This document shows positions 8,772 through 62,755 of a DNA stretch of 64,000 bases, one piece after another. The position numbers and the translations under genes were made by a program. The DNA is taken from NCBI RefSeq assembly GCF_006345805.1, contig NC_043006.1, forward strand, positions 81,096,001 to 81,160,000, in the 5' to 3' direction. This DNA comes from Octopus sinensis (Eukaryota). Every line of letters starts with the position of its first letter. Positions within the stretch are counted from its first letter, which is position 1. Below the pieces are notes generated by a model. It was not told the origin of the DNA. It saw only the letters and a list, made by a program, of their open reading frames with translations, and ran no database searches.

Positions 8772-8879
8772 AAGGTGGCAGGTTGGCAGAGTCGTTAGTA
8801 CACCGGGCAAAATTCTTTGCGGCATTTCGTCTGTATTTACGTTCACAGTTCTAGTTTCTCTGAGGTCAACTTTGCCTTC
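8772..8879 (+). mobile_element. 5' fragment of the GGCGGCGAGCTGGCAG SINE family
   Basis: Diverged match to the head of the copies at 30721 and 62755, ending GGTCAACTTTGCCTT. Confidence 0.7.
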
Positions 8880-11478: not shown

Positions 11479-11604
11479 GCCTTTCATCCATTCGGGGTCG
11501 ATAAATAAAGTACCAGTTTCGCACTGGGGTCGATGTAATCGACTTAATCCTTTTGTCTGTCCTTGTTTGTCCCCTCTATCGTTAGCCCCTTGTGGGCAGT
11601 AAAG

Positions 11605-11608
<4 letters not shown>
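11479..11608 (+). mobile_element. 3' half of SINE (GCCTTTCATCC...GGGTCGATAAA...AGTACCAG domain; tail GCCCCTTGTGGGCAGTAAAGAAATA)
   Basis: Matches the 3' half of the full copy at 30721-30950; inserted in (TA)n. Confidence 0.85.
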
Positions 11609-11641
<33 letters not shown>

Positions 11642-16623: not shown

Positions 16624-16658
<35 letters not shown>

Positions 16659-16659
<1 letters not shown>

Positions 16660-21950: not shown

Positions 21951-22063
21951 TAATAATGATGATGATGATAAAAACGCCGAGGGAGGGGCTAAGTCGATTA
22001 AATCGACCCCAGTGTTCAACTGGTGCTTATGTTATCAATCCAGAAAGGATGGCATATATTATG

Positions 22064-22709: not shown

Positions 22710-24000
22710 AGCAAAATGTACACGTGTGTCCTATGGCTGTAAAAATCAGCTACTCATTAGTAAGATGATCTTGGAAGATTGTCACAAACGACACAAAAAC
22801 TTGTCGGTAGTCTGGATAGGCTATGAAAAAACTTTTGACAGTCTACCACATAGCTGGATTAAGAAATGTCTGGAAATGCATAAAATAGCACCTATTCAGC
22901 GAAACTTTTTATCATGTATGTATGAGATCATGGAGAAGCACACTGACTTTGAACAGTGACAATGTATCTCTAAGTGCTGGCATATGGCATTTTCCAGGGT
23001 GATTCTCTATCGCCGCTACTCTTTTATCTAGCCTTAATACCTCTCTCGAAATTGCTCGAGAGTACCTAACAAGTATGAAAACAAAAAGATGTTAAACAAC
23101 TGAAATCCAAACTAAAACTGGAACAGCAACGGATCATGATAAAACGATGGCAACAGACACCCATGCATGGCATATACTGGGTTAAACGAAACCGAAAAAT
23201 GCACAAAGCAAATCCGGACAATGGCTGAGAAGCTCAGGACTCAAAGCAGAGACAGAAGGAGTTTTAATAGCAGCACAAAACCAAAGCCTCCCCACCAGAA
23301 ATTACCAAAAATATGTAATGAAAAGAAATACAACAATTAAGTACAGAATATGTGGAGATGGAAAAGAAACAATAAACCATATTGTCTCTTGGTGCCCAGC
23401 CCTGGCTAAGAAGGAATATATTCGCAGACACGACAGAGTTAGGATCTATATACACTGGAATCTATGCCGACACAATGGAATAAAAACTGAAAAAAAATGG
23501 TATAGGCACATCCCAGAAAAGATCACAGAAAAGGAGAAAATAACCACACTATGGGATGTGCCAATATACACATATAGAGAAATTAAGGCCAATAGGCTGG
23601 ATATAGTTGTCAGAAATGTTAACAAAGAAATGCTTTGTGATCGATGTATCAATACCAACAGATGACAACGTTTTACAAGAAGAAACGGAGAAACTCTCAA
23701 ATACAAGGAGGTATAAATAGTGGCCTCTCGAACGTGGAGTCTAAAAGCAGAATGAATTCCTATCATAGTAGGTTCTTTAGGTATGATGAAAAAACTATTG
23801 AGACAAATACATAACAAAAAACCAGTACTAACATGTATGTATAACATGCAGAAAATATTACTACTAGACACCGCACACATCCTACGTACAATAGTTTCAA
23901 TGCAGTAAAAATAAAAGCATCACAACAAACCATAGCACAAACGCAAGACATGCATATCTGGGCTGGGTAATGCAGTGAAAGCGCATGAAAAAATAAGACT
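22710..24000 (+). mobile_element. internally deleted, decayed R4/Dong-like element
   Basis: SYGCKNQLLISK, FDSLPHSWI, GIFQGDSLSPLLF, YRICGDGKETINHIVSWC, RRHD, REIKANRLDIVVR; collinear with 17260-19310 with large deletions, and a similar 3' UTR. Confidence 0.9.
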
Positions 24001-30664: not shown

Positions 30665-31320
30665 ATAGGCACAGGAAGTGAACGTGGTAAGAAGCGTGCT
30701 AAGAAATATCACAAAGAAAAGGCGGCGAGCTGGCAAAAACGTTTGCACGCTGGGCGAAATGCTTAGTAGTATATTTCGTCTGCCGTCACGTTCTGAGTTC
30801 AAATTCCACCAAGGTCGACTTTGCTTTTCATTCTTTCGGGGTCGATAAATTAAGTACCAGTTACGTACTGGGGTCGATGTAATCGGTTTAATCCTTTGAC
30901 TGTCCTTGTTTGTCACCTCTATGTTTAGCCCCTTGTGGGCAATAAAGAAATAAGAAGTGTGCCTCCCAACCACATGGTTCCGGATTTAGTCCCACTTACG
31001 TGACACATTGGGCAAGTGTCTTCTGCTGTAACCTCGGGCCGAACTAAGCCTTGTCAGTGGATATGGTAAACGGAAGCTGAAAGGGGCCTGTATGTGTGTA
31101 TGTGTTTGTGTGTCATGTGTTTGCCTCCCAACATCGCTTGATACCGATATTGGTGTGATTACGTCCTCGTAACTTAGCGGTTCGGCAAAAGAGACCAATA
31201 GAATAAGTATTAGGCTTGCAAAGAATAAGTCCTGGGGTCGATTTGTTCGACTAAAGGTGATGCTCCAGCATGGCGGCAGCCAAATGACAGAAACAAGTAA
31301 AAGAATAAAAGAAATAGAAA
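30665..31320 (+). mobile_element. tRNA-derived SINE (host) carrying a nested SINE
   Basis: Head ATAGGCACAGGA..GTGGTAAGAAG resumes at 30951 (CCCAACCACATGGTTCCGG...GGGCAAGTGTCTTCT); tail GGGGTCGATTTGTTCGACTAAAGG...GAAACAAGTAAAAGAATAAAAGAA. Confidence 0.85.
30700..30950 (+). mobile_element. full-length SINE of the GGCGGCGAGCTGGCA family, nested, with 12-bp TSD
   Basis: B-box GAGTTCAAATTCC; flanked by TAAGAAGCGTGC (30688-30699) and TAAGAAGTGTGC (30951-30962). Confidence 0.9.
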
Positions 31321-34233: not shown

Positions 34234-34521
34234 CTATATATATATAATATATATATATATATAAGTTTAACAATTAAGGATAATCTCTTAATAAGGGATC
34301 TAACAAGAAATTATCGGGTAGCTAGCGTGAAAACCTCAATAAAAGAAAAGAATTCGAAAATATTTTTTTCTTTTGAACAAATTAATTATATCTATATTGT
34401 ATAGAGGGCATTATTACACATAAAATGCCTCACACTAGGAGGGACAAAGTCATTACTACCAAAATTATACTAATCATACCCAAATTGCATTTTTCAAAGC
34501 AAGACATTTAAAAATGAATTT

Positions 34522-34579
34522 AGTTCTGTATCACCGTGATTTCACATTCAACTTACGTCTAATGATCGTCAGCAGAACT
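34522..34579 (-). ncRNA. type I hammerhead ribozyme
   Basis: Reverse complement of the motif at 35066-35123. Confidence 0.8.
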
Positions 34580-35065
34580 GATTCTGAACACATCATAAAT
34601 AAACTACCAACCTTACGTAGCGAAGACGAACAGACAACGCTCACTCCGGCCAAGCACATGGAATGTTTATAAATCATATATCCGGTAAATGGCGGATGAG
34701 TAGTATAATTTTGGTAGTAATGACTTTGTCCCTCTAGTGTGAGGCATTTATGTGTAATAATGCCTCTATACAATATAGATATAATTAATTTGTTCAAAAG
34801 AAAAAAATTATTTTCGAATTCTTTTCTTTTATGAGGTTTTCACGCTAGCTACCCGTAATTTCTTGTTAAGATCCCTTATTAAGAGATATCCTTAATTGTT
34901 AAACTATTCCGAAATATTTTCATTACCCGACATGCAGTTCGTAAAAAGCCCGCCATTTACCGGATATATGATTTATAAACATTCCATGTGCTTGGCCGGA
35001 GTGAGCAGTTGTCTGTTCGTCTTCGCTACGTAAGGTTGGTAGTTTATTATGATGTGTTCAGAATC

Positions 35066-35123
35066 AGTTCTGCTGACGATCATTAGACGTAAGTTGAATG
35101 TGAAATCACGGTGATACAGAACT
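35066..35123 (+). ncRNA. type I hammerhead ribozyme
   Basis: Stem I AGTTCTG/CAGAACT (7 bp), core CTGACGA, stem II CATT.GAC-GTAA-GTT.AATG, GAAA, stem III TCAC-G-GTGA, UH = TA (predicted cleavage after 35116). Confidence 0.8.
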
Positions 35124-35316
35124 AAATTCATTTTTTAAATGTCTTGCTTTGAAAAACTGCATTTGGGTATGATTAGTATAATTTTGGTAGTATGACTTTG
35201 TCCCTCCTAGTGTGAGGCATTTATGTGTAATAATGCCATCTATACAATATATATATTATATATATTAATATATAATATATATATATATATATTATATATA
35301 AATATATAATATATAT

Positions 35317-38300
35317 ATAAGTAAGGAAAATTTTTTAAAAATGGCAGATGCTCAAATGAAAGAAAATTGTAATAAAATGAGAAAATGAATAAAATATATA
35401 AATATATATTTATTCAACCGGTTTTCGTCATTGTATGACTTGTCAAGAATATTTATGTTTTAAGAAGTTATTTTAACAATTAGAAATGGGAAAAAAAGAA
35501 AATTGCATTGTTTTTGTAAAGAATAATGATAAAAATGTACAAAAATAAAAAATAAGTTCTCCGATACATTGTGAGTTCGTTGTATATCTTGAGTTTTATG
35601 GTTGTTTACCAAAAAATTACCTTGAGGTGTTAAGATCCAAAGGGATTAAGAGCATGTGATGTGTTGTGTTGTTAAATTCAGCATGTTGCAGGACAGGAAG
35701 TAGTAGTAATTGTGGTCCTGTTCTTCAGTTCCTGTGTTGTGGGTAAGGGGAGACAACTCTTTTGAGTTCTTCAATAAAACCCAAATTTAAAACTATATTT
35801 TAGCTTCATTTGCATTATCTTTTTTATATAATGCTTGTTAACTTAACTTTCAGATTTAACACTTTTATATATTATTTTCTAATAATATAAATCTGCATAG
35901 ACAATTGCATTTCAAATTGTCAATCATTTATATAAAAATGATAGTAATAACAACAATAGTAAAAATGATATTTAAAGAATGTAAGTTTAGCTTGAAGTGA
36001 TGAATGCAATGGTATCTTTATATATGTGTGTTAGTCCATCCATGAAGAGTGAGGTAGAGAAAGGAAGTTGATCAACGAGGAGTTTGCATATTAAGTTTGT
36101 GTTTGGAATTTTTCAATAAAGAGATTCTCCTTGTTAATTCTCTCTGTGTGGTGATCCCGTCTTTACATTGGTAGAAGGGAATATATAGAATTTGGGGTTT
36201 AAGTCTTTAGCACATGAGTCTATGTGGTCACTCAGTGGAATTTGTCGGTATTCCGGGAGATTTATTTGTTCTTTATGCACCGTTACTCGTTTACGTAACG
36301 GGAGACTCGTTTGTCCAACATAATTATGTTGGCAACCAGCGCATGTGAGAGCGTAGAAAAGGTTCTCGGAAGCAAAACCAAGGTAAAATCCAATTTCAGT
36401 AAGGAAGAATGGGAAAACCTACGTGACATACAACTGGATAAAACCTCACCATCAAAGAAGCGGACAAAGGGAGTGCTGTGGCTTATGGACACGGAATTTT
36501 ATAAACACCTAGTGTTCTCCATGCTTAACAATAACATTTTCTATGAGGTTATTAACAACTACAAACAGCAAAAAAACAATCAGAAACCTCACCACACTCA
36601 TACGCCAACACGGTCAGGGACTCACAGAAAAAGAAAGGGATTATATCATCATTTTCAAATGCAAGCCCAGCCTTTTTTATGGCATTCCTAAAATCCATAA
36701 AAAAACAATACATCACCGAAGCCTGCAAACTCTCCACTGACATCCACATCAACATCAAAGCACCGGAGGACCTAAAACTAAGGCCCATCGTGGTGGTACC
36801 TCCTGTGAACACACCGCCTGAGTAACTTCCTAGACATCCTTTTGAAACCTTTCCTTACCCCACATCAAAAGTTTCATTAGGGATGATCTGGACATGCTCA
36901 AACACCTCCGAAAAACAGTTAACGAGGAGGCACTCCTGGTATCCTTGTGATGTCATCAACCTCTACACCAACATTCCACACGAGTATGGTATAGAGGCAT
37001 TGACTTCTGGCTAGAAAAAACACCCAGAGACATTCCTGACCGCCAATAACAAGTCTTTATTACAGAATCTCTTAAGTTCATTCTGACAAACAATTTTTTC
37101 TCTTCGACGACACACACTACCGTCAAAAATGTGGCATTGCGATGGGTACCAAGGCTGCACCAGTCCTTGCGAACCTCATAATGGGTTACTTCGAACTGTC
37201 ACTCTATGAAATATCAAGCCAGAAATTTGGACATGTTTTCACACCTACCTAATGGAAAACTGGGAAAAGGTATTTAGATGATTGTTTCATCATATGGAAA
37301 GAACCTTATGAAAAACTCCTGGAATTCAAAACCATACTAAACAACATACATCCCAACATCCAATTCACTATGGAATTAAGCAAACATCATCTCCCATTCC
37401 TTGATCTCCTAATTATAAAAACACCTAAGAACCAAATCATAACAGACATCTACCACAAACCTACAGACTCACAACAATACCTCCTCTTTAGTTCATGCCG
37501 CCCAAAAAACACCAAGACAAATATCCCTTTCAATTTAGCTAAAAAGGGTATGCACCATTGTCTCGGATCCAAAAACACGAGAGAAATACGCCTTCAAGAC
37601 CTCAAAAAAACACTATTACAACGTCAATATCCCTCCACCCTTATAGAGTATGGAATAAAACGCGCCAAAGAACTAGACAACACTACACTGAAACCACCCA
37701 ACCTAACACCACACACAACCTCAAAATACTTCCATACATTTCACCACAACCCCAAAAATATCGAAGCATACACCACAATCATACAAAACCTCAGTCTACT
37801 GTCAACAGACCCAAAAATGAAAAGCATTATAAATACACACAAAATCCTCAAATGCAAAAGGCAACACAAATCTTTAAAAAAACTCTTGACAAATGCCAAA
37901 CTTCACACACCACATCCAACCCCAACAGTAAAAAAATGTGCACGCTCAAACTGTGGTACCTGCCCCTTTCTACTTGAAGGCTCTGAATTTACCTTCAAAC
38001 AAGGTACGAAGTTTAAAATCCAAGACTAACTTCTCCTGTTCCTCCGAGAACCTTATCTACGCTCTCACATGCGCTGGTTGCCAACATAATTATGTTGGAC
38101 AAACGAGTCTCCCGTTACGTAAACGAGTAACGGTGCATAAAGAACAAATAAATCTCCGGAATACCGACAAATTCACTGAGTGACCACTTAGACTCATGTG
38201 CTAAAGACTTAACCCCAAATTCTATATATTCCCCTTCTACCAATGTAAAGACGGGATCACCACACAGGAGAGAATTAACAAGGAGAATCTCGTTATTGAA

Positions 38301-39140
38301 AAATTCCAAACACAACTTAATATGCAAACTCCTCGTTGATCAAACTTCTTTCTCTACCTCACTCTTCATGGAGGACTAACACAAATATATAAAGATACCA
38401 TGCATTCATCACTTCAAGCTAAAACTTATATTCTTTAATATCATTTTTACTATTGTTGTTATTACTATCATTTTTATTATAAATGATATGACAATTTGAA
38501 ATGCAATTGTCTATGCAGATTTATATTATTAGAAAATAATATAATAAAGTGTTAAAATCTGAAAGTTAAGTTAACAAGCAATTATATAAAAAAGATAATG
38601 CAAATGAAGCTAAAATGATAGTTTTATAATTTGGGTTTTATTGAAGAACTCAAAAGAGTTGTCTCCCTTACCCACAACACAGGAACTGAAGAACCAGGAC
38701 CACAATTACTACTACTTCCTGTCCTGCAACATGCTGAATTTAACAACACAACACATCACATGCTCTTAATCCCTTTGGATCTTAACACCTCAAGGTAATT
38801 TTTTGGTAAAACACCATAAAACTCAAGATACACAACGAACACACAATGTATCGGAGAACTTATTTTTTAATTTTGTACATTTTATCATTATTCTTTACAA
38901 AAAACAATGCAATTTTCTTTTTTCCCATTTCTAATTGTTAAAATAACTTCTTAAAACATAAATATTCTGACAAGTCATACAATGACGAAAACCGGTTGAA
39001 TAAATATATAGTTTATATATTTATCATTTTCTCAATTTATTAAAATTTTCTTTCATTTGAGCATTCTGCATTTAAAAAAAAATTTTCCTTACTTATCATT
39101 TCTCCACGTGCGGTCAACACAACCCACCATTTATTGATCT
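35317..39140 (+). mobile_element. Penelope-like element (Neptune-like), 5'-truncated, with ~1.05-kb 5' inverted repeat
   Basis: Frameshifted ORF ~36370-38340: IKEADKGSAV, FYGIPKIHK, LRPIV, DVINLYTNIPH, GIAMGTKAAP, RYLDDCF, LPFLDL, YHKPTD, CARSNCGTC linker, NLIYALTCAGC..YVGQT..LRKRVTVH (GIY-YIG). 35317-36370 is the reverse complement of 38043-39096. Confidence 0.95.
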
Positions 39141-39630
39141 ATATATATATATATATATTATATGTATGTATGTATATATATATATTATATATATATACAT
39201 ACATACATACATACATATAATATATATATATATATATGAGAATGAATGTTTTTATATATAATGAACGTGAAATACAGGAGGGACGAACACGGAACACAGA
39301 CAAATCATTCGAAGCCTCAATCTTCAGTCAGACACCGAATCATCATAGCAAATTTCGGCTGTTCAATTCTGATATTTGCTCCAACTCGGCCAGCCCCAAG
39401 AAAAAAAAACTAAGCTGTAAGCATTAGATTTCTTGTAGAAGACAGGAATGTGAACGCACAAGACGGATGTGAATACAAGAGACGAAAACGAATTGAAAAC
39501 AGTAATGAATAAACAAAATATATATAACGGTGGTTGTCATACGACTTTAGACCAAATGAGGAAAAAACAACAACAAACATAGCTGGCGTAGAAATAATTA
39601 CCGTTTCGGTAGCGGGAAACAATGTTGGTC

Positions 39631-41337
39631 TATTTCTTATTACCCACTAGGGGCCACGAAGAGGGACACATACAAAACATGGGGGACATAAAACAATGCG
39701 ATTAAAATTATGATTAAATGAATGTTAAATGAAAAAGTGATAACATGAAAGCGATGCTAACGGCCCCCTCCGCCAGCATCACTTACCTTTCCGTTTCCTA
39801 TAACGATTCCAAAGTTTTTCACCTCACCTTTCATTTCTCTCTCATATCTCTCTATCATATCATCCTTCATAAATGCTGATAAACAATTTATACGTAGTTC
39901 ATTGCACTTGCTCATCAAAGAGCCCATGAGTTCAAAATCGAATACCGCATAGCTTCCATCCTCATACTCCTGCCATACATCGTCTTCAAAAAGCCTTCTT
40001 GCGTTCTCAGTATCCCCCTTCCCCACAACACATAAAAAGTAGGACTGGGGCTTTTGTATGTTCTGTGTGTCTGTTTTCGTTTTTCTTGTAGGCGGGAGTG
40101 GGTGGGATTGCTGTTTGCGGGGCAGGATGGGTCTCCAAGGGTGTGGGTGGTATTGGGGTGGGTTGGGGCTTCGCACAGTTTTTACTTTTCTTTCTTTTCT
40201 CTTCTTTCTGCCCTCCTCACACTCTTTTTGCATCTCCTCCTCCTCTGTCATTTCCCTTCCGTCTGCTTCTCTTTAATTTCTTCTTCTTTTGGGGCCTCCT
40301 CTTTTGGAGTTTCCTCAACGATTTCCTTTTCTCTTGGTGGGGGAGGGCAGAAGGCTCTTATGTGGCCCCTCAGGCCACACTTGTAACAACGTGGAGCTCT
40401 GCCCTCCACCCACACTCTCATAATCATGTCTCCCAATTTAATTCTCTCCGCCAGGTCCACCAGTACCTCGCTCTCCGCCTGCACGTTCAGCTCCACTATT
40501 ACGCCTCTCCAGCCCTCGGTCTTGACCGAGGCATGGAGAATATCCACTTTCTCCTCGTGGCCGCTGATCACAGCCGTCACAATCCACTCAGCCTCAACGT
40601 TTGGTGGCACTCCCTCCACCCTTACTCGTGTAATCCTTCTATTCAAGTACATTGGTAACAGTGTTACCTTTTCCGACTTCACTGTTCACCGCCATCTTCC
40701 TCGTTGCAGTCTCGCTTTTAAAATGTACCACTACAGTACCGTACTTCGATCCTCGAGTCAGAAAAATGATTTCCTCCTCCGATCTTCTCAGGGCCTCCTC
40801 TATCCATTCCATGTTTATAATTTCTATTTTCTTTCTTCGTTCGCGAACACCTTGTAAATTATGGTCCTTTATTGTACCATTCCTTTCTCTTTGCTGGTGG
40901 TTCCAGTTCCACCTCGCCGCTGTCCTTCCTCATATACCTCTGGAAACCTGGCAATTTTTCTAGGTTTATTTCTTTTTCCTGTTCCGTCTTTCTTTTGCAA
41001 CTCCTGCGTACGTTTTCCTGTTTTTTGTCTCCACATTATTTACATCACCGATTTGCTCGTCTTCAGAGTTCGATGTCTCGACAAGCTCTCAAATATCCAT
41101 TCTTCCTCCGACTCCTCCACTAGGGAGTGGTCATCCATCTCCTCCCGCCTGACAGGCCAAAACGGCCGTCAAACAGAAAGAAAAAGTGTAACGCGCAGAA
41201 ACCAGTGGAACGCGAAACCGCTTAACGCCGTTCAAAATTTCCACAACAACAAAAACAATTCTTTTTGATCTTTTTTACCGAATTTTACGAGCGTAAAAAA
41301 ACACGACCGAACTCAAACTGACGAACAGACAACTGAT
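39631..41337 (-). mobile_element. ORF1-only (gag/zinc-knuckle) non-LTR retroelement, Tx1/L1-like, copy 1
   Basis: Single frameshifted ORF ~41138-39757 with RVWVEGRAPRCYKCGLRGHIRAFCP (CX2CX4HX4C); no EN or RT; 3' end ...GCCCCTAGTGGGTAATAAGAAATA; flanked by target duplications. Confidence 0.85.
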
Positions 41338-41354
41338 CGGGACACATGTTGGTC

Positions 41355-43063
41355 TATTTCTTTATTACCCACTAGGGGCCACAAAGAGGGAACATTACAA
41401 AACATGGGGGACATAAAACAATGCGATTAAAATTATGATTAAATGAATGTTAAAATGAAAAAATGATAACATGAAAGCGATGCTAACGGCCCCCTCCGCC
41501 AGCATCACTTACCTTTCCGTTTCCTCTCACGATTCCAAAGTTTTTCACCTCACCTTTCATTTCTCTCTCATATCTCTCTATCATATCATCCTTCATAAAT
41601 GCTGATAAACAATTTATACGTAGTTCATTGCACTTGCTCATCAAAGAGCCCATGAGTTCAAAATCGAATACCGCATAGCTTCCATCCTCATACTCCTGCC
41701 ATACATCGTCTTCAAAAAGCCTTCTTGCGTTCTCAGTATCCCCCTTCCCCACAACACATAAAAAGTAGGACTGGGGCTTTTGTATGTTCTGTGTGTCTGT
41801 TTTCGTTTTTCTTGTAGGCGGGGAGTGGGTGGGATTGCTGTTTGCGGGAGCAGGATGGGTCTCCAAGGGTGTGGGTGGTATCTGGGTGGGTTGGGGCTTC
41901 GCACAGTTTTTCCTTTTCTTTCCTTTTCTCTTCTTTCTGCCCTCCTCACACTCTTTTTGCATCTCCTCCTCCTCTGTCATTTCCCTTTCCGTGCTTCTCT
42001 TTAATTTCTTCTTCTTTTGGGGCCTCCTCTTTTGGAGTTTCCTCAACGATTTCCTTTTCTCTTGGTGGGGGAGGGCAGAAGGCTCTTATGTTGACCCTCA
42101 GCCACACTTGTAACAACGTGGAGCTCTGCCCTCCACCCACACTCTCATAATCACGTCTCCCAATTTAATGCTCTCCGCCAGGTCCACCAGTACCTCGCTC
42201 TCCGCCTGCACGTTCAGCTCCACTATTACGCCTCTCCAGCCCTCGGTCTTGACCGGGGTATGGAGAATATCTACTTTCTCCTCGTGGCCGCTGATCACAG
42301 CCGCCACATCCAATCAGCCTCCACGTTTGGTGGCACTCCCTCACCCTTACATCGTGTGATCCTTCTATTCAAGTACATAGGTAAAAGTGTTACCCTTTCT
42401 GACTTCACCGCCTTCACCGCCATCCTCCTCGCTGCAGTCTCACTTTTAAAATGCACCACTACAGTACCGTACTTCGATCCTCGAGTCAGGAAATGATTTC
42501 CTCCTCCGATCTTCTCAGGGCCTCCTCTATCCATTCCATGTTTACGATCTCTATTATCTTTCTTTCGTTCACGAACACCCTGTAAATTATGGTCCTCTTA
42601 TTGTACCATTCCTTTCTCTTGCTGGTGGTTCCAGTTCCACCTCGCCGCTGTCCTTCCTCATATACCTCTGGAAACCTGGCAATTTTTCTAGGTTTATTTC
42701 TTTTTTCCTGTTCCGTCTTCTTTTTGCAACTCCTGCGTACGTTTTCCTGTTTTTTCTCCACATTATTTACATCACCGATTTGCTCGTCTTCAGAGTTCGA
42801 TGTCTCCGACAAGCTCTCAAATATCCATTCTTCCTCCGACTCCTCCACTAGGGAGTGGTCATCCATCTCCTCCCGCTGACAGGCCAAAACGGCCGTCAAA
42901 ACAGAAAAAGTGTAACGCGCAGAACCAGTGGAACGCGAAACGCTTTAACGCCGTTCAAAATTTCCACAACAACAACAACAATTCTTTTTGATCTTTTTTA
43001 CCGAATTTTACGAGCGTAAAAAAAACACGACCGAACTCAAACTGACGAACAGACAACTGATCC
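41355..43063 (-). mobile_element. ORF1-only (gag/zinc-knuckle) non-LTR retroelement, copy 2
   Basis: Highly similar to copy 1 with scattered substitutions and different indels; ORF ~42866-41483. Confidence 0.85.
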
Positions 43064-43734
43064 GCGGGAACACATGTTGGTCGAGATACGAGGCCAACAG
43101 AATGGTTTAAGAAGCAGCAGGTCGCAGAGAGAGAGAGAAAGAGAGACAGAGAGAGAGGGAATCAAAGAGGGTGGAAGGCAGGGACAGAATCAGTGACCAA
43201 GAGAAAAGGAGAAAGAAGGGATTAAGGAGGATGGGTGGAAAGAGGGGAGGAGGATGGGAGGAAGAGAGGGGAAGAATCGGAGGGCGCCAAAAAGTTTGGT
43301 GAAGAAGCAATGGCGGGGTAGGAAGACAGTGTGTATAGAAGTCGTGCAGGGTTTAAATTGGACAAACAAACGGGGGGGGGGTGCACATAACGCCGCAATA
43401 ATATAAGAATGAATGTTTTTTTATATATAATGAACGTGAAATACAGGAAGGGACGAACACGGAACACAGACAAATCATTCGAAGCCTTCAATCTTCAGTC
43501 AGACACCGAATCATCATAGCAAATTTCGGCTGTTCAATACATACATCTATATTAATATATATAATATATATATATAGTATATATATTATTGTGTGTGTGT
43601 GTGTGTGGTTTGTTGTGTGTGTGTGTGTGTATATGCATATATGTATGTGTGTGTATATGATCGATACATACAACATCCAATAAATGTGCCCTACTTTCCT
43701 CTATCTACTCATTCGAAACATATATATATATATA

Positions 43735-44748
43735 TAAAAGAGAGGTATATCCAAAATAAACTGGATTTTTGCAATGTTTATTTTATTCACATAATTCTCC
43801 GTGACTACAACATTCATCATCTTCACAATAAGCAATACATCGGTCCAGATGCGTTTTTCCAATTTTCGAAGTAGTGCTAGAACTCTTGCGCGAAGTGATG
43901 GCTCTCAACGCTTCCGCCATTTTTTTTCTTCACCTCTTACACATCTGCAAATTCCCGTAGCACCATCTTTCGTCACCAATGATGACCTTCAAATTAAAGG
44001 TCCGGATGATGAACTTCCAACTGTTCTTTCAGTTCCCGTCAGACATTCAACTCGTGACTATTTTGATCTCTGTGATCCTTCAAGCGACAAGTGAAACATC
44101 CCTAAAGCATGAAAGAAAACACTCGTAAACTTGTGCTTTGCTCATGGTAACATCCTGGTAAGCTGTTTGAAGTTATAACAGCTGTTTCCGACGCGTTTTC
44201 ACCAGCATTAAAATAGAATATCAACAGAAGCATGTTGATTTTCGTTTCAGCATTGCAAAAATCGACAAACAAGAGAGAAAACACTGCAAAAAAACAGACA
44301 CACTACGTGGCAGCAGTACGATCCACCCGACGACGCCGGTTGGAAGATGATGCACGGAGTTTCATCAAGTGGCTTACCTGCGGAACTACGACTGGATTCA
44401 AGCAATAATAAATCTGCTGAACGAGGTATAAACAGTAACTGCACGACAATGTGAGCTATATTTGCCATCACAATATGGCTAACAACTAAGGGTGGGTATT
44501 ACTGTAGCTTGTAGCCCCAGGAGAACATCTCCTTCAGCTGGCTTTAGGCACAATTTCTGTGCCCTTGCAAATACCTTAAGAGCACAGAAAATGTGCCTAA
44601 AGCCAGCTGGAGGAGATGTTCTCCTGGGGCTAGAATCTACAGTAACACCCACCCTTATGTGTTAGCCCTATGAGATGGCAAATATACACCTTACAACTGG
44701 ATTGTCCCACTGAACACTTTTCGGTTAGTTTTGTGTACCCCCTTGTAT
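43735..44748 (-). mobile_element. internally deleted mariner element (same group as 5257-6244)
   Basis: Reverse strand reads KTASETAVILQTAYQDVTMSKAQVYEWFS (clearest in the duplicate at 46711-46962), KVIIGDERWCYG and a C-terminal LDRCIA; degenerate TIRs at both ends. Confidence 0.8.
44457..44686. mobile_element. hairpin (foldback) MITE nested in the mariner
   Basis: ~100-bp near-perfect inverted arms TATATTTGCCATC...TTTCTGTGC / GCACAGAAA...GATGGCAAATATA; duplicate at 47066-47295. Confidence 0.85.
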
Positions 44749-44820
44749 ATATATATATATATAATATATATAATATATATATATATATATTATATATATA
44801 TTATATATATATATATATAT

Positions 44821-44937
44821 ATCACCGTGATCACCGTGACCGACCAGGCTATCAGATGTTGCTACAATCGCTGGTCACAATGCACTTGGCATTGTTTTAG
44901 CCTTCGAATGACGCCACCCCACTGGCAAGCGAGCAGG

Positions 44938-44941
<4 letters not shown>
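44821..44941 (-). mobile_element. 3' fragment of the 13833-type SINE
   Basis: Reverse complement of ~14021-14145; duplicate at ~47430-47550. Confidence 0.85.
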
Positions 44942-44977
<36 letters not shown>

Positions 44978-45586
44978 TAGACAGATAGATAGATATGCAT
45001 GTGTATGTGTGTGTCAGAATAAACACTTGCTGGGCATTATAATGATTATATCATGAGAGATCTATCCAATCAGATTAATTATGAAGCTTATAAATAGAGA
45101 ATAAATAAGAACATAAGAGAAAGGCAGAGAGAGACCAGAGGCCAACACAGACGCTAATGAATATGAGAAAATGTTAACCCATTAGAAATACACATTGCCA
45201 GTAACTTTTCGATTGAAGCCACCTCACAAGGAACTTTCTAATGGTACTCCGATATTCCGAATGGATAGTCAACGCCAATCTGTTAACAATTTCTGACTAA
45301 CAATCATATAAGATAAATCGAAATCATTGACTTCTCTCCCATCAAATTATTCACTTTTCCATTTACTTATTGTAGAGCCACCAATATTCTATACACACAC
45401 ACACGCACACAAACACACACACAAATACACAAACACATGCATACACATATGTATGTTTATATGTGTATACATATATGAGTGTATATATATATATAATATT
45501 AATGTATTAAGCAATTATATATTGCATACATACATATATATATATATATTAATGAATGTACGCAATTATCTATATGCATACATATA

Positions 45587-45623
<37 letters not shown>

Positions 45624-45895
45624 GCATGTACATAAAATATATATATATATACATATATATAAAATATAATATATATATATATATATATAATATATTATAT
45701 ATATATATATAATATATATATGATCATGTGTATATGTATGTATGTATGTATGTTATTCTTTAACAAGGAGAGTTTTGACACTGACTTCGAGGTTTCGGTC
45801 AGCTAAACCATCTTTGAACTCTCCTACGATGCCTTAGCTCGAAATAACTAATCCTTCAATTTCATGTAAATTTGTTTTTGTTTTAACATAATATT

Positions 45896-46080
45896 TAAGG
45901 CGGTGAAATAGCAGAGTCGTTAGTATGCCGGGTAAAATGCATAGCGGTGTTTTGTCCGTCTTTAAGTTCTGAGTTCAAAATTCCACGTCTCATCCTTTCG
46001 TGGTCGATAAAATAAATCCCAGCTGTGCACTGGGGTTGATGTAATCGAAATCGCTGGCCTTGTGCCAAAATTTGAAACCC
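45896..46080 (+). mobile_element. degenerate SINE (GGCGG..AG family)
   Basis: GAGTTCAAAATTCC, CATCCTTTCGTGGTCGATAAAA, CACTGGGGTTGATGTAATCG; duplicate at ~48496-48680. Confidence 0.75.
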
Positions 46081-46313
46081 TTACGACATAAGATCAAACA
46101 TTAAAATATGTATATATGTGTATGTGTGTCTGTGATTACGAGTATGCATAATTGAATAAGAGAAATTTTGTAAAAATACAGTGTTAAAAATAATTTATTT
46201 AAAGTGTAGACTGTTTTGATAGAATATCTATGCTTTGTGTCATATATCACTTTTATACGATATACTCCTACATTTTAATATATTTACTCAATTTCTAATC
46301 GTCTTTATATTTA

Positions 46314-46413
46314 NNNNNNNNNNNNNNNNNNNNNNNNNNNNNNNNNNNNNNNNNNNNNNNNNNNNNNNNNNNNNNNNNNNNNNNNNNNNNNNNNNNNNNN
46401 NNNNNNNNNNNNN
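46314..46413. other. assembly gap (100 N)
   Basis: Run of N. Confidence 1.
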
Positions 46414-47546
46414 ATTCTCCGTGCTAACATTCATCATCTTCACAATAAGCAATACATCGGTCCAGATGCGTTTTCCACTTTTCGAAGTAGTGCTAGAACT
46501 CTTGCGAAGTGATGGCTCTCAACGCTTCCGCCATTTTTTTTCTTCACCTCTTACACATCTGCAAATTCCGTAGCACCATCTTTCGTCACCAATGATGACC
46601 TTCAAATAAAGGTCCGGATGAACTTCCAACTGTTCTTTCAGTTCCCGTCAGACATTCACTCGTGACTATTTTTGATCTTCTGTGATCCTTCAAGCGACAA
46701 GTGAACATCCCTAAAGCATGAAAGAAAACCACTCGTAAACTTGTGCTTTGCTCATGGTAACATCCTGGTAAGCTGTTTGAAGTATAACAGCTGTTTCCGA
46801 CGCCGTTTTCACCAGCATAAAATAGAATATCACAGAAGCATGTTGATTCTTCGTTTCAGCTATTGCAAAAATCGACAAACAAGAGAGAAACACTGCAAAA
46901 CAAAGACACACTACGTGGCAGTACGATCCCACCCGACGACGCCGGTTGGAAGACTGATGCACGAGAGTTTCATCAAGTGGCTTTTACCTGCGGAACTACG
47001 ACTGGATTCAAGCAATAATAAATCTCTGAACGAGGTATAAACAGTAACTGCACGACAATGTGAGCTATATTTGCCATCACAATATGGCTAACAACTAAGG
47101 GTGGGTATTACTGTAGCTTGTAGCCCCAGGAGAACATCTCCTTCAGCTGGCTTTAGGCACACTTTCTGTGCCCTAGCAAATACCTTAAGAGCACAGAAAA
47201 TGTGCCTAAAGCCAGCTGGAGGAGATGTTCTCCTGGGGCTAGAATCTACAGTAACACCCACCCTTATGTGTTAGCCCTATGAGATGGCAAATATACACCT
47301 TACAACTGGATTGTCCCACTGAACACTTTTCGGTTAGTTTTGTGTACCCCCTTGTATATATATATATATATAATATATATAATATATATATATATATATT
47401 ATATATATATTATATATATATATATATATATCACCGTGATCACCGTGACCGACCAGGCTATCAGATGTTGCTACAATCGCTGGTCACAATGCACTTGGCA
47501 TTGTTTTAGCCTTCGAATGACGCCACCCCACTGGCAAGCGAGCAGG

Positions 47547-47586
<40 letters not shown>

Positions 47587-48266
47587 TAGACAGATAGATA
47601 GATATGCATGTGTATGTGTGTGTCAGAATAAACACTTGCTGGGCATTATAATGATTATATCATGAGAGATCTATCCAATCAGATTAATTATGAAGCTTAT
47701 AAATAGAGAATAAATTAAGAAACATAAGAGAAAGGCAAGAGACCAGAGGCCAACACAGACGCTAATGAATATGAGAAAATGTTAACCCATTAGAAATACA
47801 CATTGCCAGTAACTTTTCGATTGAAGCCACCTCACAAAAGGAACTTTCTAATGGTACTCCGATATTCCGAATTGGATAGTCAACGCCAATCTGTTAACAA
47901 TTTCTGACTAACAATCATATAAGATAAATCGAAATCATTGACTTCTCTCCCATCAAATTATTCACTTTTCCATTTACTTATTGTAGAGCCACCAATATTC
48001 TATACACACACGCACACAAACACACACACAAATACACAAACACATGCATACACATATGTATGTTTATATGTGTATACATATATGAGTGTATATATATATA
48101 TATAATATTAATGTATAAGCAATTATATATATGCATACATACATATATATATATATTAATGAATGTACGCAATGATCTATATGCATACATACATATATAT
48201 AATATAATATATATATATATATTATATGCATGTACATATATATATATATATACATATATTATACAT

Positions 48267-48312
<46 letters not shown>

Positions 48313-48912
48313 ATAATATGTATCCAGGGATATGTATGTATGTATGTATGTATGTTATTCTTTAACAAGGAGAGTTTTGACACTGGCTTCGAGGTTTCGG
48401 TCAGCTAAACCATCTTTGAACTCTCCTACGATGCTTAGCTCGAAATAACTAATCCTTCAATTTCATGTAAATTGTTTTTGTTAAACATAATATTTAAGGC
48501 GGTGAAATAGCAGAGTCGTTAGTATGCCGGGTAAAATGCATAGCGGTGTGTTTTGTCCGTCTTTAAGTTCTGAGTTAAAAATTCCACGTCTATCCTCGTG
48601 GTCGATAAATAAATCCCAGCTGTGCACTGGGGTTGATGTAATCGAAATCGCTGGCCTTGTGCCAAAATTTGAAAACCTTACAACATAAGATCAAACATTA
48701 AAATATGTATATATGTGTATGTGTGTCTGTGATTACGAGTATGCATATATGAATAAGAGAAATTTTGTAAAAATACAGTGTTAAAAATAATTTATTTAAA
48801 TGTGTAGACTGTTTTGATAGAATATCTATGCTTTGTGTCATATATCACTTTTATACGATATACTCCTACATTTTAATAATATTTTACTCAATTTCTAATC
48901 GTCTTTATATTT
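46414..48912 (+). repeat. ~2.5-kb direct duplicate of 43795-46313 across the gap (probable unmerged contig overlap)
   Basis: The copies differ mainly by 1-bp indels; one ends and the other begins exactly at the gap. Confidence 0.85.
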
Positions 48913-49577
48913 AGATATTTATTTAAATCTGTCTAACATACTTCACATAATGTCTGTTATCAAATGTATCATATATCTTCTTCAGTAATTTAAACTTTTA
49001 AAAAAAAGAAAAATATAAACTGCTACGAGTTTTTATATGAATAATTTAATTATGAAAGCAAAATAATTTAATATGAGCAGAAGATGTATTAAGTTGTTGA
49101 ATAGATACGATTTTTACTTGCAGTGAATACTTTTTCCATAGATATTACTTTCACTAAAGTCAGGCAATTCTCTCTACGCTTCAAATCTTCCATCGTGTAT
49201 ATAAGGTTTCTTCGATTTTTTCCTTTAATTTACAATTAATACATACTACACAAAGACATTTGAGAAACAGTTTGATGTTATTTTCTTTTGCAAAAGAGTT
49301 ATTATTATCCAAAAGAAGAAACCGTGAACATAGTAATTATTTTCAGGTCTCATGCTGGATCCTTAAGTCGTTTTGCGTTATTCACTAAAATAATTGTAAA
49401 CATTGCAATCTTACCATTATACTCCACCAGGTATTATGCTTGTTTTTGTTTTAACATACTTTAAAATTTAGTAGTTCCAATGATTCAGTATAGTGCACGG
49501 TTTGTTGTATAGTCAGGTAAAGTCAGATAGAATGGAGTGTGTGAACTACGTATATTAGACAATTACATCAAAATATC

Positions 49578-51479: not shown

Positions 51480-54400
51480 TCATGACAAACATCTAACAAG
51501 AATACCGTCGAGTTATTCATGCCTGTAACAAACACTTCAACAATAAACTCAAGTGGATGAAACAGCAACAAAACGATCTCAGCATGGTAAGAATCAAAAC
51601 AAATGCCCAAACATTATCGACGGGAGTGTCATGTCAGAATGCAAACTACCAGAGGATTTCGACGCCAGGACACCGGAAAGCAATACCGCCATCAACAACA
51701 ACAACAACAACAAGAAATACACCTCTGGAATATATGGAATATACAGATGAAATGCATGCTTTAGAGTTACCACCAATTTCGCTACATATAAAAAAATGTC
51801 AGAAAAATTGATTGTCTGAAATTGAAAAAACGTTCTTAAAATTTAGATGGAGGTTAGGACAATACAACAACAACAAACATACAAACATACGATACCAAAA
51901 CAACAACAATAACAATAGCAGTGTTGATGACAACAACAATAGTGGCAATAACAGCAACAACAATGATAACCACAAGATTCCTCACTCAGACAACTATAAC
52001 AACAATAACACAAGCGTAGGAAACAGAAACAACTATTATAACAACAACAGTAACGATGATGATAGCAACAATAACAACAACAACAACAACAACCCACACA
52101 CAGATAATGATAACAACCACATCATCCACACCACTACCAACAACAACACCCACAACAATAACAATAGGCACAACACGAGCACTACCACCAGCAACAACAA
52201 CAACAATGCCAACAACAATAATAATAACAAAAATCACAACGATAATAACACTCTACATTCTGTCTTCTATAAACCTAACAACAATTCTTATGACATGACG
52301 AGGATCTACCCCACAGACTTATACTTTAACAAAAGTGTATGTATCCCACCCAAATTTGACAGTGAAACAGAAGCAAAGATCTCCTTAACTAGAAATAAAC
52401 TCCGACATATCTTAGACAGATACAACAAATCCACTAAAAAACATAGTGTGGAGGGGACCCACCAACTCAGCTCGTCTGTTGACAAAGACCTACAAAAACT
52501 AAATCAGCGGATTAGGAACAAAAAATTATTGTGCCTCTCTACGGACAAATCTGGCAGACTGTCAATAGACAGCTCACAGACATATGTCCAGAACATGCAA
52601 CAACACATCAGCAGCATGAGAGAAGTTACACCACAAGAACATGAAAGAGTGGAAAAACTCCTCAATGCACACATGGAGATATGGTGCAACATACTCTAGT
52701 CTATAAAACGGATGGCACACAATTTCCAAGCATCGAACAACAACATTCCTACACTATATGGGTTACACAAAGACCACAAACCCTACACAAACCCTGTCAT
52801 GGGGCCCCCAACCAGACCAGTCTGCGGAGCGAACATCTCCAGCAGCTATAGACTGTCCTACTTCCTCTCACAGGTATTACGACCTCTCATAGAGATGACT
52901 CCGGATGTCTGTGTGAGTACAGAAGATCTCCTCAGTGAAATCAGTACGTGCAACCACTCCAACGACCTCACAGGTTGTGTAGTGGGTAGTATGGATGTGA
53001 TTTCACTCTACCCATCTATAGACATACATTTTTGTGTAGAGATGCATTCAGGTAATCTGTGAGAGTGAGGTGGAATTCCGTAAGGTCAACACAAGGGAAC
53101 TGGGCCTCCTCCTCAGACTATGCTATGACAGTAATTATTTAGATAACCATGACCTCAGTAGATTCTGCCCCACCAGGTCACAGAAGGGAAAACCACCCAC
53201 CATCACTACAGCAGTGAAGTAAAGCACCACAGAGCGCTGGAGTGGCTGGGCTGCATCGACCCCAAACCCTGAGAACAACAATCAGGTGAAAGAAATGATT
53301 GCATATGCAATAGGGCCAGTGTAAAAACCACCCTGAAGAACCACATAGTAAAGTTTAACAAAAAAACTATACATGCAGGTTCAAGGTGCAGCCACCGGTG
53401 TCGGTGTAGCTAGAGATGTGGCCGGCCTATTCATGACCTGGTAGGACAGAAAACTGAAACAAATGTTAGCAGCACAGTCCACAACTCTTCTACTCCAGAG
53501 TAGATATGTAGAGGACATTAATATCATAGTCAGGACCAACTCTAGTGATAACTAGTGTAGAAACTGAGAAGAACGTAATGGAGAATATCCAGCAAATAGC
53601 TAACTCCATCCCCCAAAGTATCAAGGTAACTATAGATTACCCCACTAAGCACCCCAACAATAAACTCCCTATACTTGATACTGGACTTTGGTTAGAGACT
53701 GTGAACAATAGAGCGCAATTCCCCTACTCCTATTACATGAAACCTATAACTTCAAAATATGTTGTTCACAAGAACTCATCTTTGTTACACAACATGAAAA
53801 TGAACATACTTATAGCAGACTTAGTTAGAATAATGAAGAATGTGTCCACACTATGCGAATCCTATGAAACGAAAAAACATATACAGAACTTCATGCACCA
53901 CATGCAGTTCTCGGGATATGATCAGAAAGATAGGGTTCGAGTATACAGAGGGGCTAGAAAGAAATTAGAAAACATTACACGTAATGATACCAGTGGTTCC
54001 TGTCCTAGATATAGAAACAAAAAATGGAATAGGATACAAAGAACTTGTGACAAAGCAAACAGGGAGAAAACGTGGTATAAAACCGACAAATATCAAGGAG
54101 TGATGTTTGTAGAGGCTACAGCCCATGGAGATCTATCCCGTAGATTTAGAAAAGCTCTGAAGGTGACCAAACTCAACATTAAGATTGTTGAAAAACCAGG
54201 GAACTCCCTCAGATCACAACTATGTAGGACGTACCCCTTTGAGAATACCATATGCACCAATGATAACTACACGGTATATAGGATTAGCCCTGACATTAAC
54301 TGTAGAACTCGAAATGTAGTCTACAACATAAGATGCATAGAGGTTGCTTGTAAAGACATGAACATGACATACATAGGGGAGACATCTAGGAACATTAGGG

Positions 54401-54600
54401 AACGACTAACTGAAGCTCGGAGACAATATGACGACAAAAAAACAGTCCGCCATACTCTACCAACATGCCAAAGACCACCACGGCGGCAACTTGGGTCAAC
54501 TTGACATCCGCATTTTATCCAAGCACCCAAAAGACACAACACTCAGACAAATACGGGAGTACGTACTTATAAAAGAAACTTCCCCAATATGAAATAGGAA
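51480..54600 (+). mobile_element. Penelope-like element (Naiad-like), near full length, decayed
   Basis: EIEKTFLKFRW, STDKSGRL, PTLYGLHKDHK, PPTRPVCGA, GSMDVISLYPSI, QVQGAATG, RYVEDI, LPILD, FSGY, NCRTRNVVYNIRC..YIGETSRNIRERL (GIY-YIG); several stops and frameshifts. Clade assignment is inference. Confidence 0.9.
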
Positions 54601-55799: not shown

Positions 55800-57200
55800 T
55801 TATGTGAAGTCGTCTGTTGAAACAGATAATGATCGCACATGCACTAGGAGCTAGTATAAGAATTACCCTAAAAGGCCACACGTTTAAGTTTAATAATAAA
55901 ATATATGCCCAGGACGAGGGGGCAGCCATAGGCGTTAGTATCGCTGGTGATGTGGCCAACCTTTTCATGGTATGGTGGGACAGAAGGCTTAAAGAACGCC
56001 TAACACAGAACTCCATACTCGTAAACATGTACTCTCGCTATGTTGATGGTATCAACATAGTGGTAAAGGCAGCCCCACAAGAGAGTAATGTTGATATAGT
56101 AATAGAAACTAATACTATGGAGATCATCCAGCAAATAGCTAACTCCATCCACCAGAGTATTAAGGTCACAATAGACTACCCCACTAAACACCCCAACCAG
56201 AGACTACCAGTACTAGACACCGACCTCTGGCTAGAAATTGTGAATAATAAAACCCAAATCCTTCATTCATACTATGCCAAACCTATGGCCTCAAAATACT
56301 TGATCCACCGGAACTCAGCCATTGCGGACAATGCCAAGTTCAATATTTTGATGGCAGACCTCATCAGAATAATGAGAAATGTGTCATGCATGTGCGAGCC
56401 CACAGAGTTAACGAGACACATACAATATTTCATTCACCGCATGCAGTTCTCAGGTTACAGCCATAAAGAAAGGATCAGAGTATACAAAGGAGCCATTAAG
56501 AAATTTGATAATATATTATGTAATGATAGGAATGGTATTTGCCCACTCTATAGGAACAAGTCATGGAATACTATAGAAAGGACAAAAAAGAAAATAGGGA
56601 AGGCCAGCTCTTGGTATGATAGCCATAAATACCAGAGTGTCATGTTCGTTGACACCACCCCTGGAGGTGAACTGGCGTATCGCTTTAGAAGGACCCTAGA
56701 CCAACTTAAGCTAACAATTAAGGTTGTTGAAAAGCCAGGCAACCCTATCAAATCTATAATTGGTAGAACCTATCCTTTTAGTAGAATGCCCTGTACGGAT
56801 AAGTACTATACTGTATGTAGATTTAGCCCACAAACAAACTGTAAAGCCAGAAATGTAGTCTATAGTATTAGATGTATAGAGGGACGGTGCAGTAACAAGA
56901 CAATGACATACGTAGGGGAAACGGCAGAAGCATAGGAGAGCGGGTAAATGAGCATTGGAGACAACTCAAGGAAGGTAAAAGCTCATCGATTCTGTACCAA
57001 CACGCCGAACAAGAACACTGGGGATCAATCAATAACATAGAAATTAAAATATTATCCACCACAAGATCAGATGCAACAATTAGACAAATTACAGAAGCTA
57101 CACACATAAAAAATAACCTAGCCTGAATAGAAAACTAGAATGGAGCACTAACACACACCACAACATCTGACGATAGAGGATCCTGAAAACATAATAAATA
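55800..57200 (+). mobile_element. Penelope-like element (Naiad-like), 5'-truncated, second family
   Basis: ORF 55817-56935: YAQDEGAAIGVSIAGDVANLFMVWWD, RYVDGIN, LPVLD, YYAKPMAS, FSGY, NCKARNVVYSIRC..YVGET; after frameshifts RSIGERVNEH...IRQITEA...LNRKLEW. Confidence 0.92.
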
Positions 57201-62177: not shown

Positions 62178-62755
62178 TATTTTTTTACTACCCACAAGGG
62201 GCTAAACTCAGAGAGGACAAACAAGGACAGACAAACGGATTAAGTCGATTATATCGACCCCAGTAACAGGTACTTATTTAATCGACCCCGAAAGGATGAC
62301 AGGCAAAGTCGACTTCGGCGGAATTTGAACGTAGCGGCAGATGAAATACCTATTCTTTTTTTTACAACCCACAAGGGGCTAAACACAGAGGGGACAAACA
62401 AGGACAGACAAACGGATTAAGTCGATTATATCGACCACAGTAACTGGTACTTATTTAATCGACCCCGAAAGGATGAAAGGCAAAGTCGACTTTGGCGGAA
62501 TTTGAACGTAGCGGCAGATGAAATACCTATTCTTCTTTTTACAACCCACAAGGGGCTAAACACAGAGGGGACAAACACGGACAGACAAACGGATTAAGTC
62601 GATTATATCGACCCCAGTGCGAAACTGGTACTTATTTAATCGACCCCGAAAGGATGAAAGGCAAAGTCGACCTCGGCGGAATTTTAACTCAGAACGTAGC
62701 GGCAGACGAAATACCGCAAAGCATTTCGCCCGGCGCGCTAACGTTTCTGCCAGCT
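62178..62755 (-). mobile_element. SINE (GGCGGCGAGCTGG family) with its 3' ~180 bp present in three tandem copies
   Basis: CCCACAAGGGGCTAAAC...AAAGTCGAC..CGGCGGAATT occurs three times; only the last unit carries the head (62690-62755). Confidence 0.9.

Follow-up and report, generated by a model that had tools for sequence, protein, structure and literature searches.

The window analyzed here is a 64,000-nucleotide stretch of the Octopus sinensis genome, and it contains two head-to-tail elements of about 1.7 kb that carry ORF1 but no ORF2 and end in a 3' tail of about 45 nt that also terminates a SINE. This raises the question of which machinery copies these elements and what that machinery recognizes in them. 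Our answer is that a Tx1-type LINE, ending in the same tail without poly(A), would copy both the ORF1-only element and the SINE in trans through its ORF2 protein (ORF2p), and we place this reading at about 85%, because the same tail ends the LINE, its ORF1-only derivative and the SINE. The features of the window that bear on it are the following, where TSD stands for target-site duplication:

11479..11609, plus strand: 5'-truncated SINE with the tail, within a TA microsatellite
30690..30699, plus strand: left copy of the nested-SINE TSD, beginning AGAA
30720..30952, plus strand: tail-bearing full-length SINE of stem variant GGGC, lying inside the head of a different SINE family
30953..30962, plus strand: right copy of the nested-SINE TSD
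39239..39365, strand not assigned: direct repeat of the carrier repeat, right end; the ORF1-only pair lies within the carrier
39612..39630, minus strand: right TSD copy of the pair, 19 bp, abutting the tail with no poly(A)
39631..39675, minus strand: common 3' tail of copy 2 of the ORF1-only element; it lacks one A that most copies have
39631..41337, minus strand: ORF1-only (half-Tx1) element, copy 2
39757..41138, minus strand: ORF1 of copy 2, frameshifted; intact relatives have about 463 aa
40344..40391, minus strand: CCHC zinc knuckle of ORF1 (Pfam zf-CCHC, E 0.021, under the curated cut-off)
41338..41354, minus strand: middle TSD copy, 17 nt, between the two elements
41355..41399, minus strand: common 3' tail of copy 1 of the ORF1-only element, as quoted in the first-pass annotation
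41355..43063, minus strand: ORF1-only (half-Tx1) element, copy 1; it is 92% identical to copy 2 and in tandem with it, head to tail
41483..42866, minus strand: ORF1 of copy 1, frameshifted
43064..43082, minus strand: left TSD copy of the pair, 19 bp; empty site in locus L018 and in sequencing run X4
43406..43536, strand not assigned: direct repeat of the carrier repeat, left end
62178..62755, minus strand: three tandem SINE units, stem variant GGGT, with GGTA after each tail

The first-pass annotation of this window had reported that the ORF1-only element and the SINE share their tail, and its pattern indeed gave four matches in the window when up to three mismatches were allowed (11585, 30928, 41355 and 62178), with 0 expected from 100 shuffles. 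The three SINE tails were located where it had placed them (11572-11608, 30916-30952 and 62178-62215). The element tail that it quoted is also real, but it is that of the copy ending at 41355 and not the sequence at 39631-39672; the tail at the latter position has one substitution and lacks one A compared with the quote, and was therefore missing from the four matches. Similarly, the TSD described for the nested SINE at 30700 is genuine, but its length is not the 12 bp claimed: the best reading is 10 bp with one mismatch (30690-30699 and 30953-30962), and the longer one counts two bases common to the tail end. Twenty extra bases separate the left TSD copy from the head of this SINE.

To find the autonomous partner, the genome was searched with both the tail and the RT. 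An exact 25-mer of the tail had 285 matches, and the control had none. The first 30 of these were 11 SINEs, 12 ORF1-only elements, two bare tails with their own TSD and five ORF2 C-termini, so the tail preceded by an APE-RT reading frame, which the annotation had predicted, was found. All five of the latter loci contained elements with ORF1 and APE-RT, and at three of them these were mixed in arrays with ORF1-only elements; the autonomous and ORF1-only members of such arrays had one TSD in common. In the RT search, the best 122 of 46,807 candidates showed 84-100% identity, and all 20 RT-selected copies with a long open ORF2 (1126-1176 aa) ended in the tail, 116-261 nt past the frame; RT-encoding elements thus do end in it. 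These autonomous LINEs measured 5.1-5.5 kb, with TSDs of 13-18 bp, in the copies whose 5' end was found. Their ORF2 matched the Pfam families Exo_endo_phos, RVT_1 and zf-RVT above the cut-off, and their ORF1 contained a CCHC knuckle (zf-CCHC, E 0.0028, under the cut-off). The autonomous elements are therefore composed of ORF1 and an APE-RT-zinc-finger ORF2 followed by the tail, and their terminal base is also that of the ORF1-only elements and SINEs, whose TSDs of 10-31 bp start right past it.

The closest named homolog of ORF2 was from Argonauta hians, with 63% identity. In a phmmer comparison, ORF2 scored 330 bits to Xenopus Tx1 (P0184) and 236 bits to human L1 ORF2p; Xenopus Tx1 itself scored 263 bits against human L1. 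The RTs fell into a 26-row clade with Xenopus Tx1 (SH-aLRT 95), and the L1-like rows were separate (99), in a quick IQ-TREE tree of 35 of the 99 rows with SH-aLRT as its support measure, where L1 was represented by two metagenome ORF2s with 584 and 604 bits to human L1 ORF2p in place of a named L1. The partner RT is of the Tx1 type and not L1 proper, and the tree thus narrows the earlier suggestion that the SINE and the gag-only element depend on the same Tx1/L1-like LINE. "The same LINE" is correct for one Tx1 lineage and not for one family, as at least three autonomous families and two ORF1-only lineages carry the same tail. The targets of these LINEs recur in repeats, yet many unrelated ones are used. 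In L358 (near 7425) and L354 (near 7489), autonomous copies abut another element's tail or the interior of another copy's ORF2, that is, they land in their own kin. It was also observed that the 5' ends of one LINE family (L341, L344-L346, L355 and L358) start with sequence resembling an earlier TSD, which suggests that old target sites were absorbed into them.

We then compared the tails block by block. Among seven family representatives, the last 45 nt were 70-93% identical, against 44-49% in shuffled sequences, and in the pairs that contain the SINE the three upstream blocks were at chance. For the ORF1-only element and the SINE, identity was 77% in the last 45 nt (shuffled, 47%) and 48, 50 and 46% in the next three 45-nt blocks upstream (shuffled, 49, 51 and 42%). 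The LINEs and the SINE were 74-78% identical in the last 45 nt (shuffled, 45-47%) and at chance upstream. Some LINE-LINE and ORF1-only pairs stayed similar further upstream of the tail. Since the synonymous sites of ORF1 are mostly saturated between tail-sharing families while the tails are similar, the shared tail is either constrained or was exchanged recently.

The SINE measures about 233 bp and has TSDs of 10-25 bp. A degenerate version of the tail pattern had 95,387 exact matches genome-wide (control, 0), and the first 30 of these that were fetched all had SINE sequence upstream. It is short, non-coding, present in high copy number and bounded by TSDs, as a SINE should be. Its head contains what we take, by eye, to be A-box-like and B-box-like motifs. 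No tRNA match to the head was found in Rfam, where only three chance-level matches appeared. A MetaSINE identity was considered and set aside, since no likeness was apparent by eye to the bivalve MetaSINE sequences in the part of the supplement consulted (PMC4824008). The SINE may well be one of the octopus OK/OR1/OR2 SINEs (Ohshima and Okada 1994). Distant relatives of its head or body that lack the tail pattern were seen in the window at 8784-8878, 21990-22054, 45897-46048 and 48496-48645.

Turning to the ORF1-only element, a DNA search of the window's own genome (2.72 Gb) gave 64 matches from the best 39 of 729 candidates, the long ones being 91-97% identical. In all 30 fetched loci, among them both window copies and, with more than one entry each, three other arrays, the tail terminated the central ORF1-only copy and the TSD followed immediately; three of these tails were A-rich, and one lacked about 15 nt before its last part. 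The subfamily-specific tail pattern of the window's type had 53 exact matches. When the ORF1 protein was the query, the best 150 of 11,613 candidates were all at least 68% identical, and many had open frames of 470-490 aa. The tail was located 731-748 nt past the knuckle in 34 of 39 distinct window-type ORF1 cores, the other five being cut by the end of the locus, and no endonuclease was found downstream of the core in any of the 39. In a quick ORF1 tree, the ORF1-only core formed a single clade (SH-aLRT 100, stem length 1.0) apart from the three autonomous ORF1 clades, to which its identity was 34-42%. Among ORF1-only subfamilies, dN/dS was 0.07-0.19 with dS up to 2.8 (Nei-Gojobori, 189 codons, 10 pairs of five representatives). 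The lineage is thus old and under purifying selection.

Collectively, these elements have an ORF1 under selection, no ORF2, a LINE-type 3' end and a TSD, and they are a Tx1 analogue of HAL1; HAL1 proper, which derives from L1, is ruled out by the homology of their ORF1 to that of Tx1-clade elements. A second ORF1-only lineage also forms arrays (L097 4510-6535, L115, L341 and L232-L250); its elements measure about 1.8-2 kb and end in the same tail, and its ORF1 falls in a clade of its own. A protein atlas placed ORF1 near CCHC and ZCCHC3-like RNA-binding clusters (0.91-0.93), which is a lead only. Contigs from four sequencing runs covered the ORF1-only element in pieces; the RNA status of these runs is a guess, and they have no bearing on transcription or read-through. 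The element was found in runs under three organism labels, and so the family is probably common to several species.

From these data we propose the following mechanism. ORF2p would bind the tail, probably through its small GCCC/GGGY hairpin and the U-rich block that precedes it, and reverse transcription would start at a fixed point, hence no poly(A) would be copied. To judge from dN/dS, the ORF1-only element would still need its own ORF1 protein, probably for RNA packaging. With about even odds, transcripts would extend beyond the tail by a few bases, which come from the old TSD or the following tandem unit and could pair with the nicked target, so that targets resembling the parent's flank are preferred and head-to-tail arrays build up. 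The broader claim, that strict tail recognition and read-through priming replaced poly(A) priming in an animal Tx1 lineage, with a preference heritable by locus, seems to us equally likely to hold or to fail. If it were true, the preference would be set by the locus rather than the enzyme, and in the same way for the LINE, two independent ORF1-only parasites and a SINE of about 100,000 copies; it would represent a natural RNA-steered LINE integration with a reprogrammable guide of 4-10 bases that builds mixed head-to-tail arrays.

The evidence for the read-through step comes from target-site choice. The flank of the window's ORF1-only subfamily started with G and then A or G in 17-18 of 21 flank clusters. 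SINE tails were mostly followed by GGTA, those of two other ORF1-only subfamilies by AGA, and those of the second LINE family and the second ORF1-only lineage often by ACAT. For the two main LINE families, of which about 37 tails were classed, target starts were mostly NG in one and AC or AT in the other. The SINE itself is divided by one base: genome-wide, tails with C at the last stem position were followed by AGAA and then a base other than A in 1,889 cases and by GGTA and then a base other than T in 198, and those with T at this position in 415 and 4,072, respectively, an odds ratio of about 94. Among 60 checked loci, diverged tandem or nested units accounted for about 8/20 and 5/10 of the AGAA cases and 2/10 and 1/20 of the GGTA cases; such units lower the flank counts and leave the contrast intact. 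A TSD of at least 10 bp was present in 28 of these 60 SINEs, and the other 32 had none that long. Of the 28 TSDs, 24 started at the junction with the 4-mer also present in the left copy, and therefore the 4-mer is target DNA.

Tandem junctions and solo insertions were separated among tails sampled within the first 9.3 Mb of contig C1, some tandem arrays having been chosen on purpose. The 19 C-lineage tails had AGAA at three tandem junctions and GGTA at one, and their solo starts were AG in seven, TATA in six, GGTA in none and other in two. The 42 T-lineage tails had GGTA at 25 tandem junctions and AGAA at none, with solo starts of GGTA in six, AG in three, TATA in four and other in four. Genome-wide, one cell of the 2x2 table of tandem-junction types was counted, with 1,294 cases. 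A third class of SINE, inside TA repeats, has TSDs that begin with TATA. Insertions of the C lineage into the head of the second SINE family are found before AGAAG (window 30690, L272 and L279), and one T copy (L290) lies four bases earlier, before GGTA; counter to this pattern, the T copy L318 is followed by AGAAG.

The lineages one base apart thus prefer the starts found at their own tandem flanks, and near-identical endonucleases occur at unrelated targets: LINEs with endonucleases 95-100% identical were followed by TGAC, AGAC, GGCA and GGTA, and the copy in L095, with an RT 98-99% identical to theirs, by AGAA. For these reasons, we consider it an even chance that read-through RNA pairs with the nicked target and the site preference is inherited from the parent's flank. 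In a 230-nt tree, the comparison of LINE sub-lineage with target was mixed, with one near-identical sub-clade showing four different starts. RNA pairing would not be the only factor, however; since the two main LINE families differ both in endonuclease (72% identity) and in target start, endonuclease preference also contributes. It could even be the sole determinant, if Tx1 subfamilies cut different motifs, such as two fixed sites in the SINE head, if each passenger lineage is copied by one of them, and if arrays arise because the cut site is regenerated. Tail sharing would stand and only the RNA-pairing step would be replaced. Crocodilian SINEU and Tx1-Mar have been so read, in the sections of that report consulted (PMC4494074), and with some 37 LINE tails classed, a GGTA-cutting subfamily may have been missed. 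Nevertheless, the unrelated starts next to near-identical endonucleases, GGTA and AGAC among them, the opposite ten-fold biases of SINE lineages one base apart and the TATA-starting class in TA repeats speak against it, and we hold this account to be possible, though somewhat doubtful.

We then asked whether the tail is recognized by the RT at all, or is only a 3'-processing signal spread by template switching, in which case a relaxed RT would accept any RNA end. Consistent with the latter, AATAAA is located in the tail, 6-7 nt before its end, and part of the tail conservation may serve 3'-end processing. Moreover, distant Tx1-like relatives often end in AATAAA and poly(A). They are from a set of 80 metagenome loci with relatives of 24-36% identity; of the 39 Tx1- or L1-like loci in this set that had a C-terminal zinc finger and more than 150 nt of 3' sequence, none had the tail and many ended in poly(A), the closer relatives (50-64%, including Argonauta) lying outside it. 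Folding, which the first-pass annotation had suggested as a check, gave a divided answer: RNAalifold on 25 tails returned one conserved hairpin of 4 bp with a 5-nt loop, in which 99% of cells pair, yet none of its four pairs showed a compensatory change in these tails, with only G-U to G-C and one broken pair. One of five single tails folded better than its shuffles, and a longer lower stem was not supported. Judged from the alignment, the hairpin is plausible. Against the relaxed RT, the conserved block begins about 30 nt upstream of AATAAA, and many SINEs have AGTAAA in its place. The ends are also precise: only one of 301 tails in the fetched loci was followed by an A run, and TSDs, 10-31 bp overall, begin directly at the tail end. 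Furthermore, two of the 30 exact 25-mer matches (L072 and L089, at the centre) were bare tails of 25-30 nt with their own TSD, that is, extreme 5' truncations that mark where reverse transcription starts. We therefore regard the relaxed RT as unlikely.

The ORF1-only copies could also have multiplied as DNA, within the carrier repeat or by tandem duplication, with no participation of a LINE RT. At 14 loci, including the window, one carrier repeat, which sits in TA microsatellites, and one TSD are shared, and because identity is 98% in the flanks and 99% in the elements, this subset probably spread by co-amplification; an identical 5' truncation is also repeated within some arrays. Nonetheless, the window subfamily spans 21 flank clusters among 36 tails, several with their own TSD of 12-31 bp (independent sites L019, L023, L024 and L028), and the empty carrier site exists, both in L018 and in run X4, where it takes the form of a joint with 19 ambiguous letters. 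Such independent insertions rule out DNA copying as the whole account, which we judge very improbable, and it holds for the carrier-borne subset to which the window belongs. That the gag element acquired its tail by the separate insertion of a SINE fragment, a possibility raised in the first-pass annotation and favored only by the great abundance of SINEs, is ruled out for practical purposes, since the tail is terminal with the TSD outside it in 30 of 30 loci, carries family-specific bases and is closer to the LINE (83%) than to the SINE (77%); it is an integral part of the ORF1-only family.

The carrier repeat (window 39239-39630 and 43083-43536; L004-L030) consists of tandem units of about 700 bp with a 131-bp terminal direct repeat and variable 5' ends, is inserted in TA microsatellites and is non-coding as far as seen; it is putatively Penelope-like. 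Adjoining it at 35320-39093 is a broken RT element with a 1.06-kb inverted repeat (35320-36370 and 38043-39093) and no Pfam match, presumably of the Penelope type by its motifs. Other observations in the window were two RT-element pieces with a C-terminal zinc finger, a restriction-like nuclease motif and RVT_1 and zf-RVT matches (16608-19215 and 23084-23996), which we assume to be R4/Dong-like; an RT on the minus strand at 20192-21850 (RVT_1, E 3e-26), presumably CR1-like, that served as outgroup; and two related (66%) broken frames with no Pfam match (51812-54504 and 55808-56935), which we take to be RT/GIY-YIG-like. A 2.6-kb direct duplication (43794-46313 and 46414-48913; 96-98%) across a 100-N gap (46314-46413) may be an assembly artefact, and a MITE-like repeat with internal inverted repeats has copies at 9727-10366 and 34264-35246.

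Pairs of SINE and LINE with a common tail have been described before, as have half-LINEs; the literature searched contained no report of an animal Tx1 element with a stringent tail, and the searches of open full texts brought up neither a Tx1 tail common with a SINE nor a half-Tx1. The main text of a 2026 octopus repeat annotation, in the portion consulted, lists 13 recently active L1-Tx1 families and does not contain the words "tail" or "partner" (PMC13282606). Our data identify what probably drives one of this genome's most abundant SINEs and extend ORF1-only parasites to the Tx1 clade. The annotation had considered a stringent tail notable against the poly(A) of mammalian L1, a contrast that is less new than it supposed, as such tails are known in the wider L1 clade from maize and Chlamydomonas: in a survey of 58 SINE-LINE tail pairs, as far as it was consulted, L1-clade tails occur in only three SINEs, maize ZmSINE2/3 and Chlamydomonas SINEX-3 (Ohshima 2013, PMC3747384). 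The animal Tx1-clade case would join this short list, and it bears on whether mammalian L1, in recognizing poly(A), represents a derived, relaxed state. As some autonomous copies are intact, both the tail requirement and read-through steering are open to direct test, and guidance by a handful of RNA bases would also be relevant to the use of LINE proteins for targeted gene insertion.

The comparisons that follow are limited to the parts of the cited reports that were consulted. The octopus system resembles eel UnaL2 and zebrafish ZfL2 in having a short 3' tail common to SINE and LINE; in those pairs the tail contains a small stem-loop and is taken as recognized by the RT (PMC4176376, PMC3747384). 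Unlike most known stringent pairs, which involve CR1, L2 and RTE, the LINE here is of the Tx1 clade in an animal host, with no terminal repeat or poly(A) past the tail. The ORF1-only element is similar to HAL1, HeT-A and Ag-Sponge, non-autonomous LINEs that keep only ORF1 and arose more than once (PMC5786205, PMC5753468); these are so named by Kojima (2018, PMC5786205), with no mention of Tx1 in the text consulted. They derive from L1, Jockey and CR1, respectively, whereas the octopus element derives from Tx1, and it differs from them in its sequence-specific tail common with a LINE and a SINE and in its mixed arrays with both. As in crocodilians, where SINEU is moved by Tx1-clade LINEs such as Tx1-Mar, targets in other repeats are shared and tandem copies around a TSD form by sequential insertion (PMC4494074). 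SINEU, however, ends in poly(A), no LINE with the SINEU-1 3' end was found and the link is the shared target (Kojima 2015, PMC4494074), whereas the octopus SINE shares the tail itself, and its targets are many and lineage-dependent. The proposed read-through step has its parallel in R1Bm, R2Ol and SART1, where RNA bases past the 3' UTR anneal to the nicked target and aid priming, a mechanism demonstrated in R2Ol and put forward for the other two (PMC6530143, PMC7265360). These have one fixed target, whereas those of the octopus elements vary, so that pairing would make the preference heritable. Finally, the octopus LINE shares with Xenopus Tx1 (YTX2_XENLA, P0184) its RT clade and an APE-RT-zinc-finger ORF2, 31% identical over 826 aa, and differs from it in belonging to its own sub-lineage with octopod and other relatives and in having no single target.
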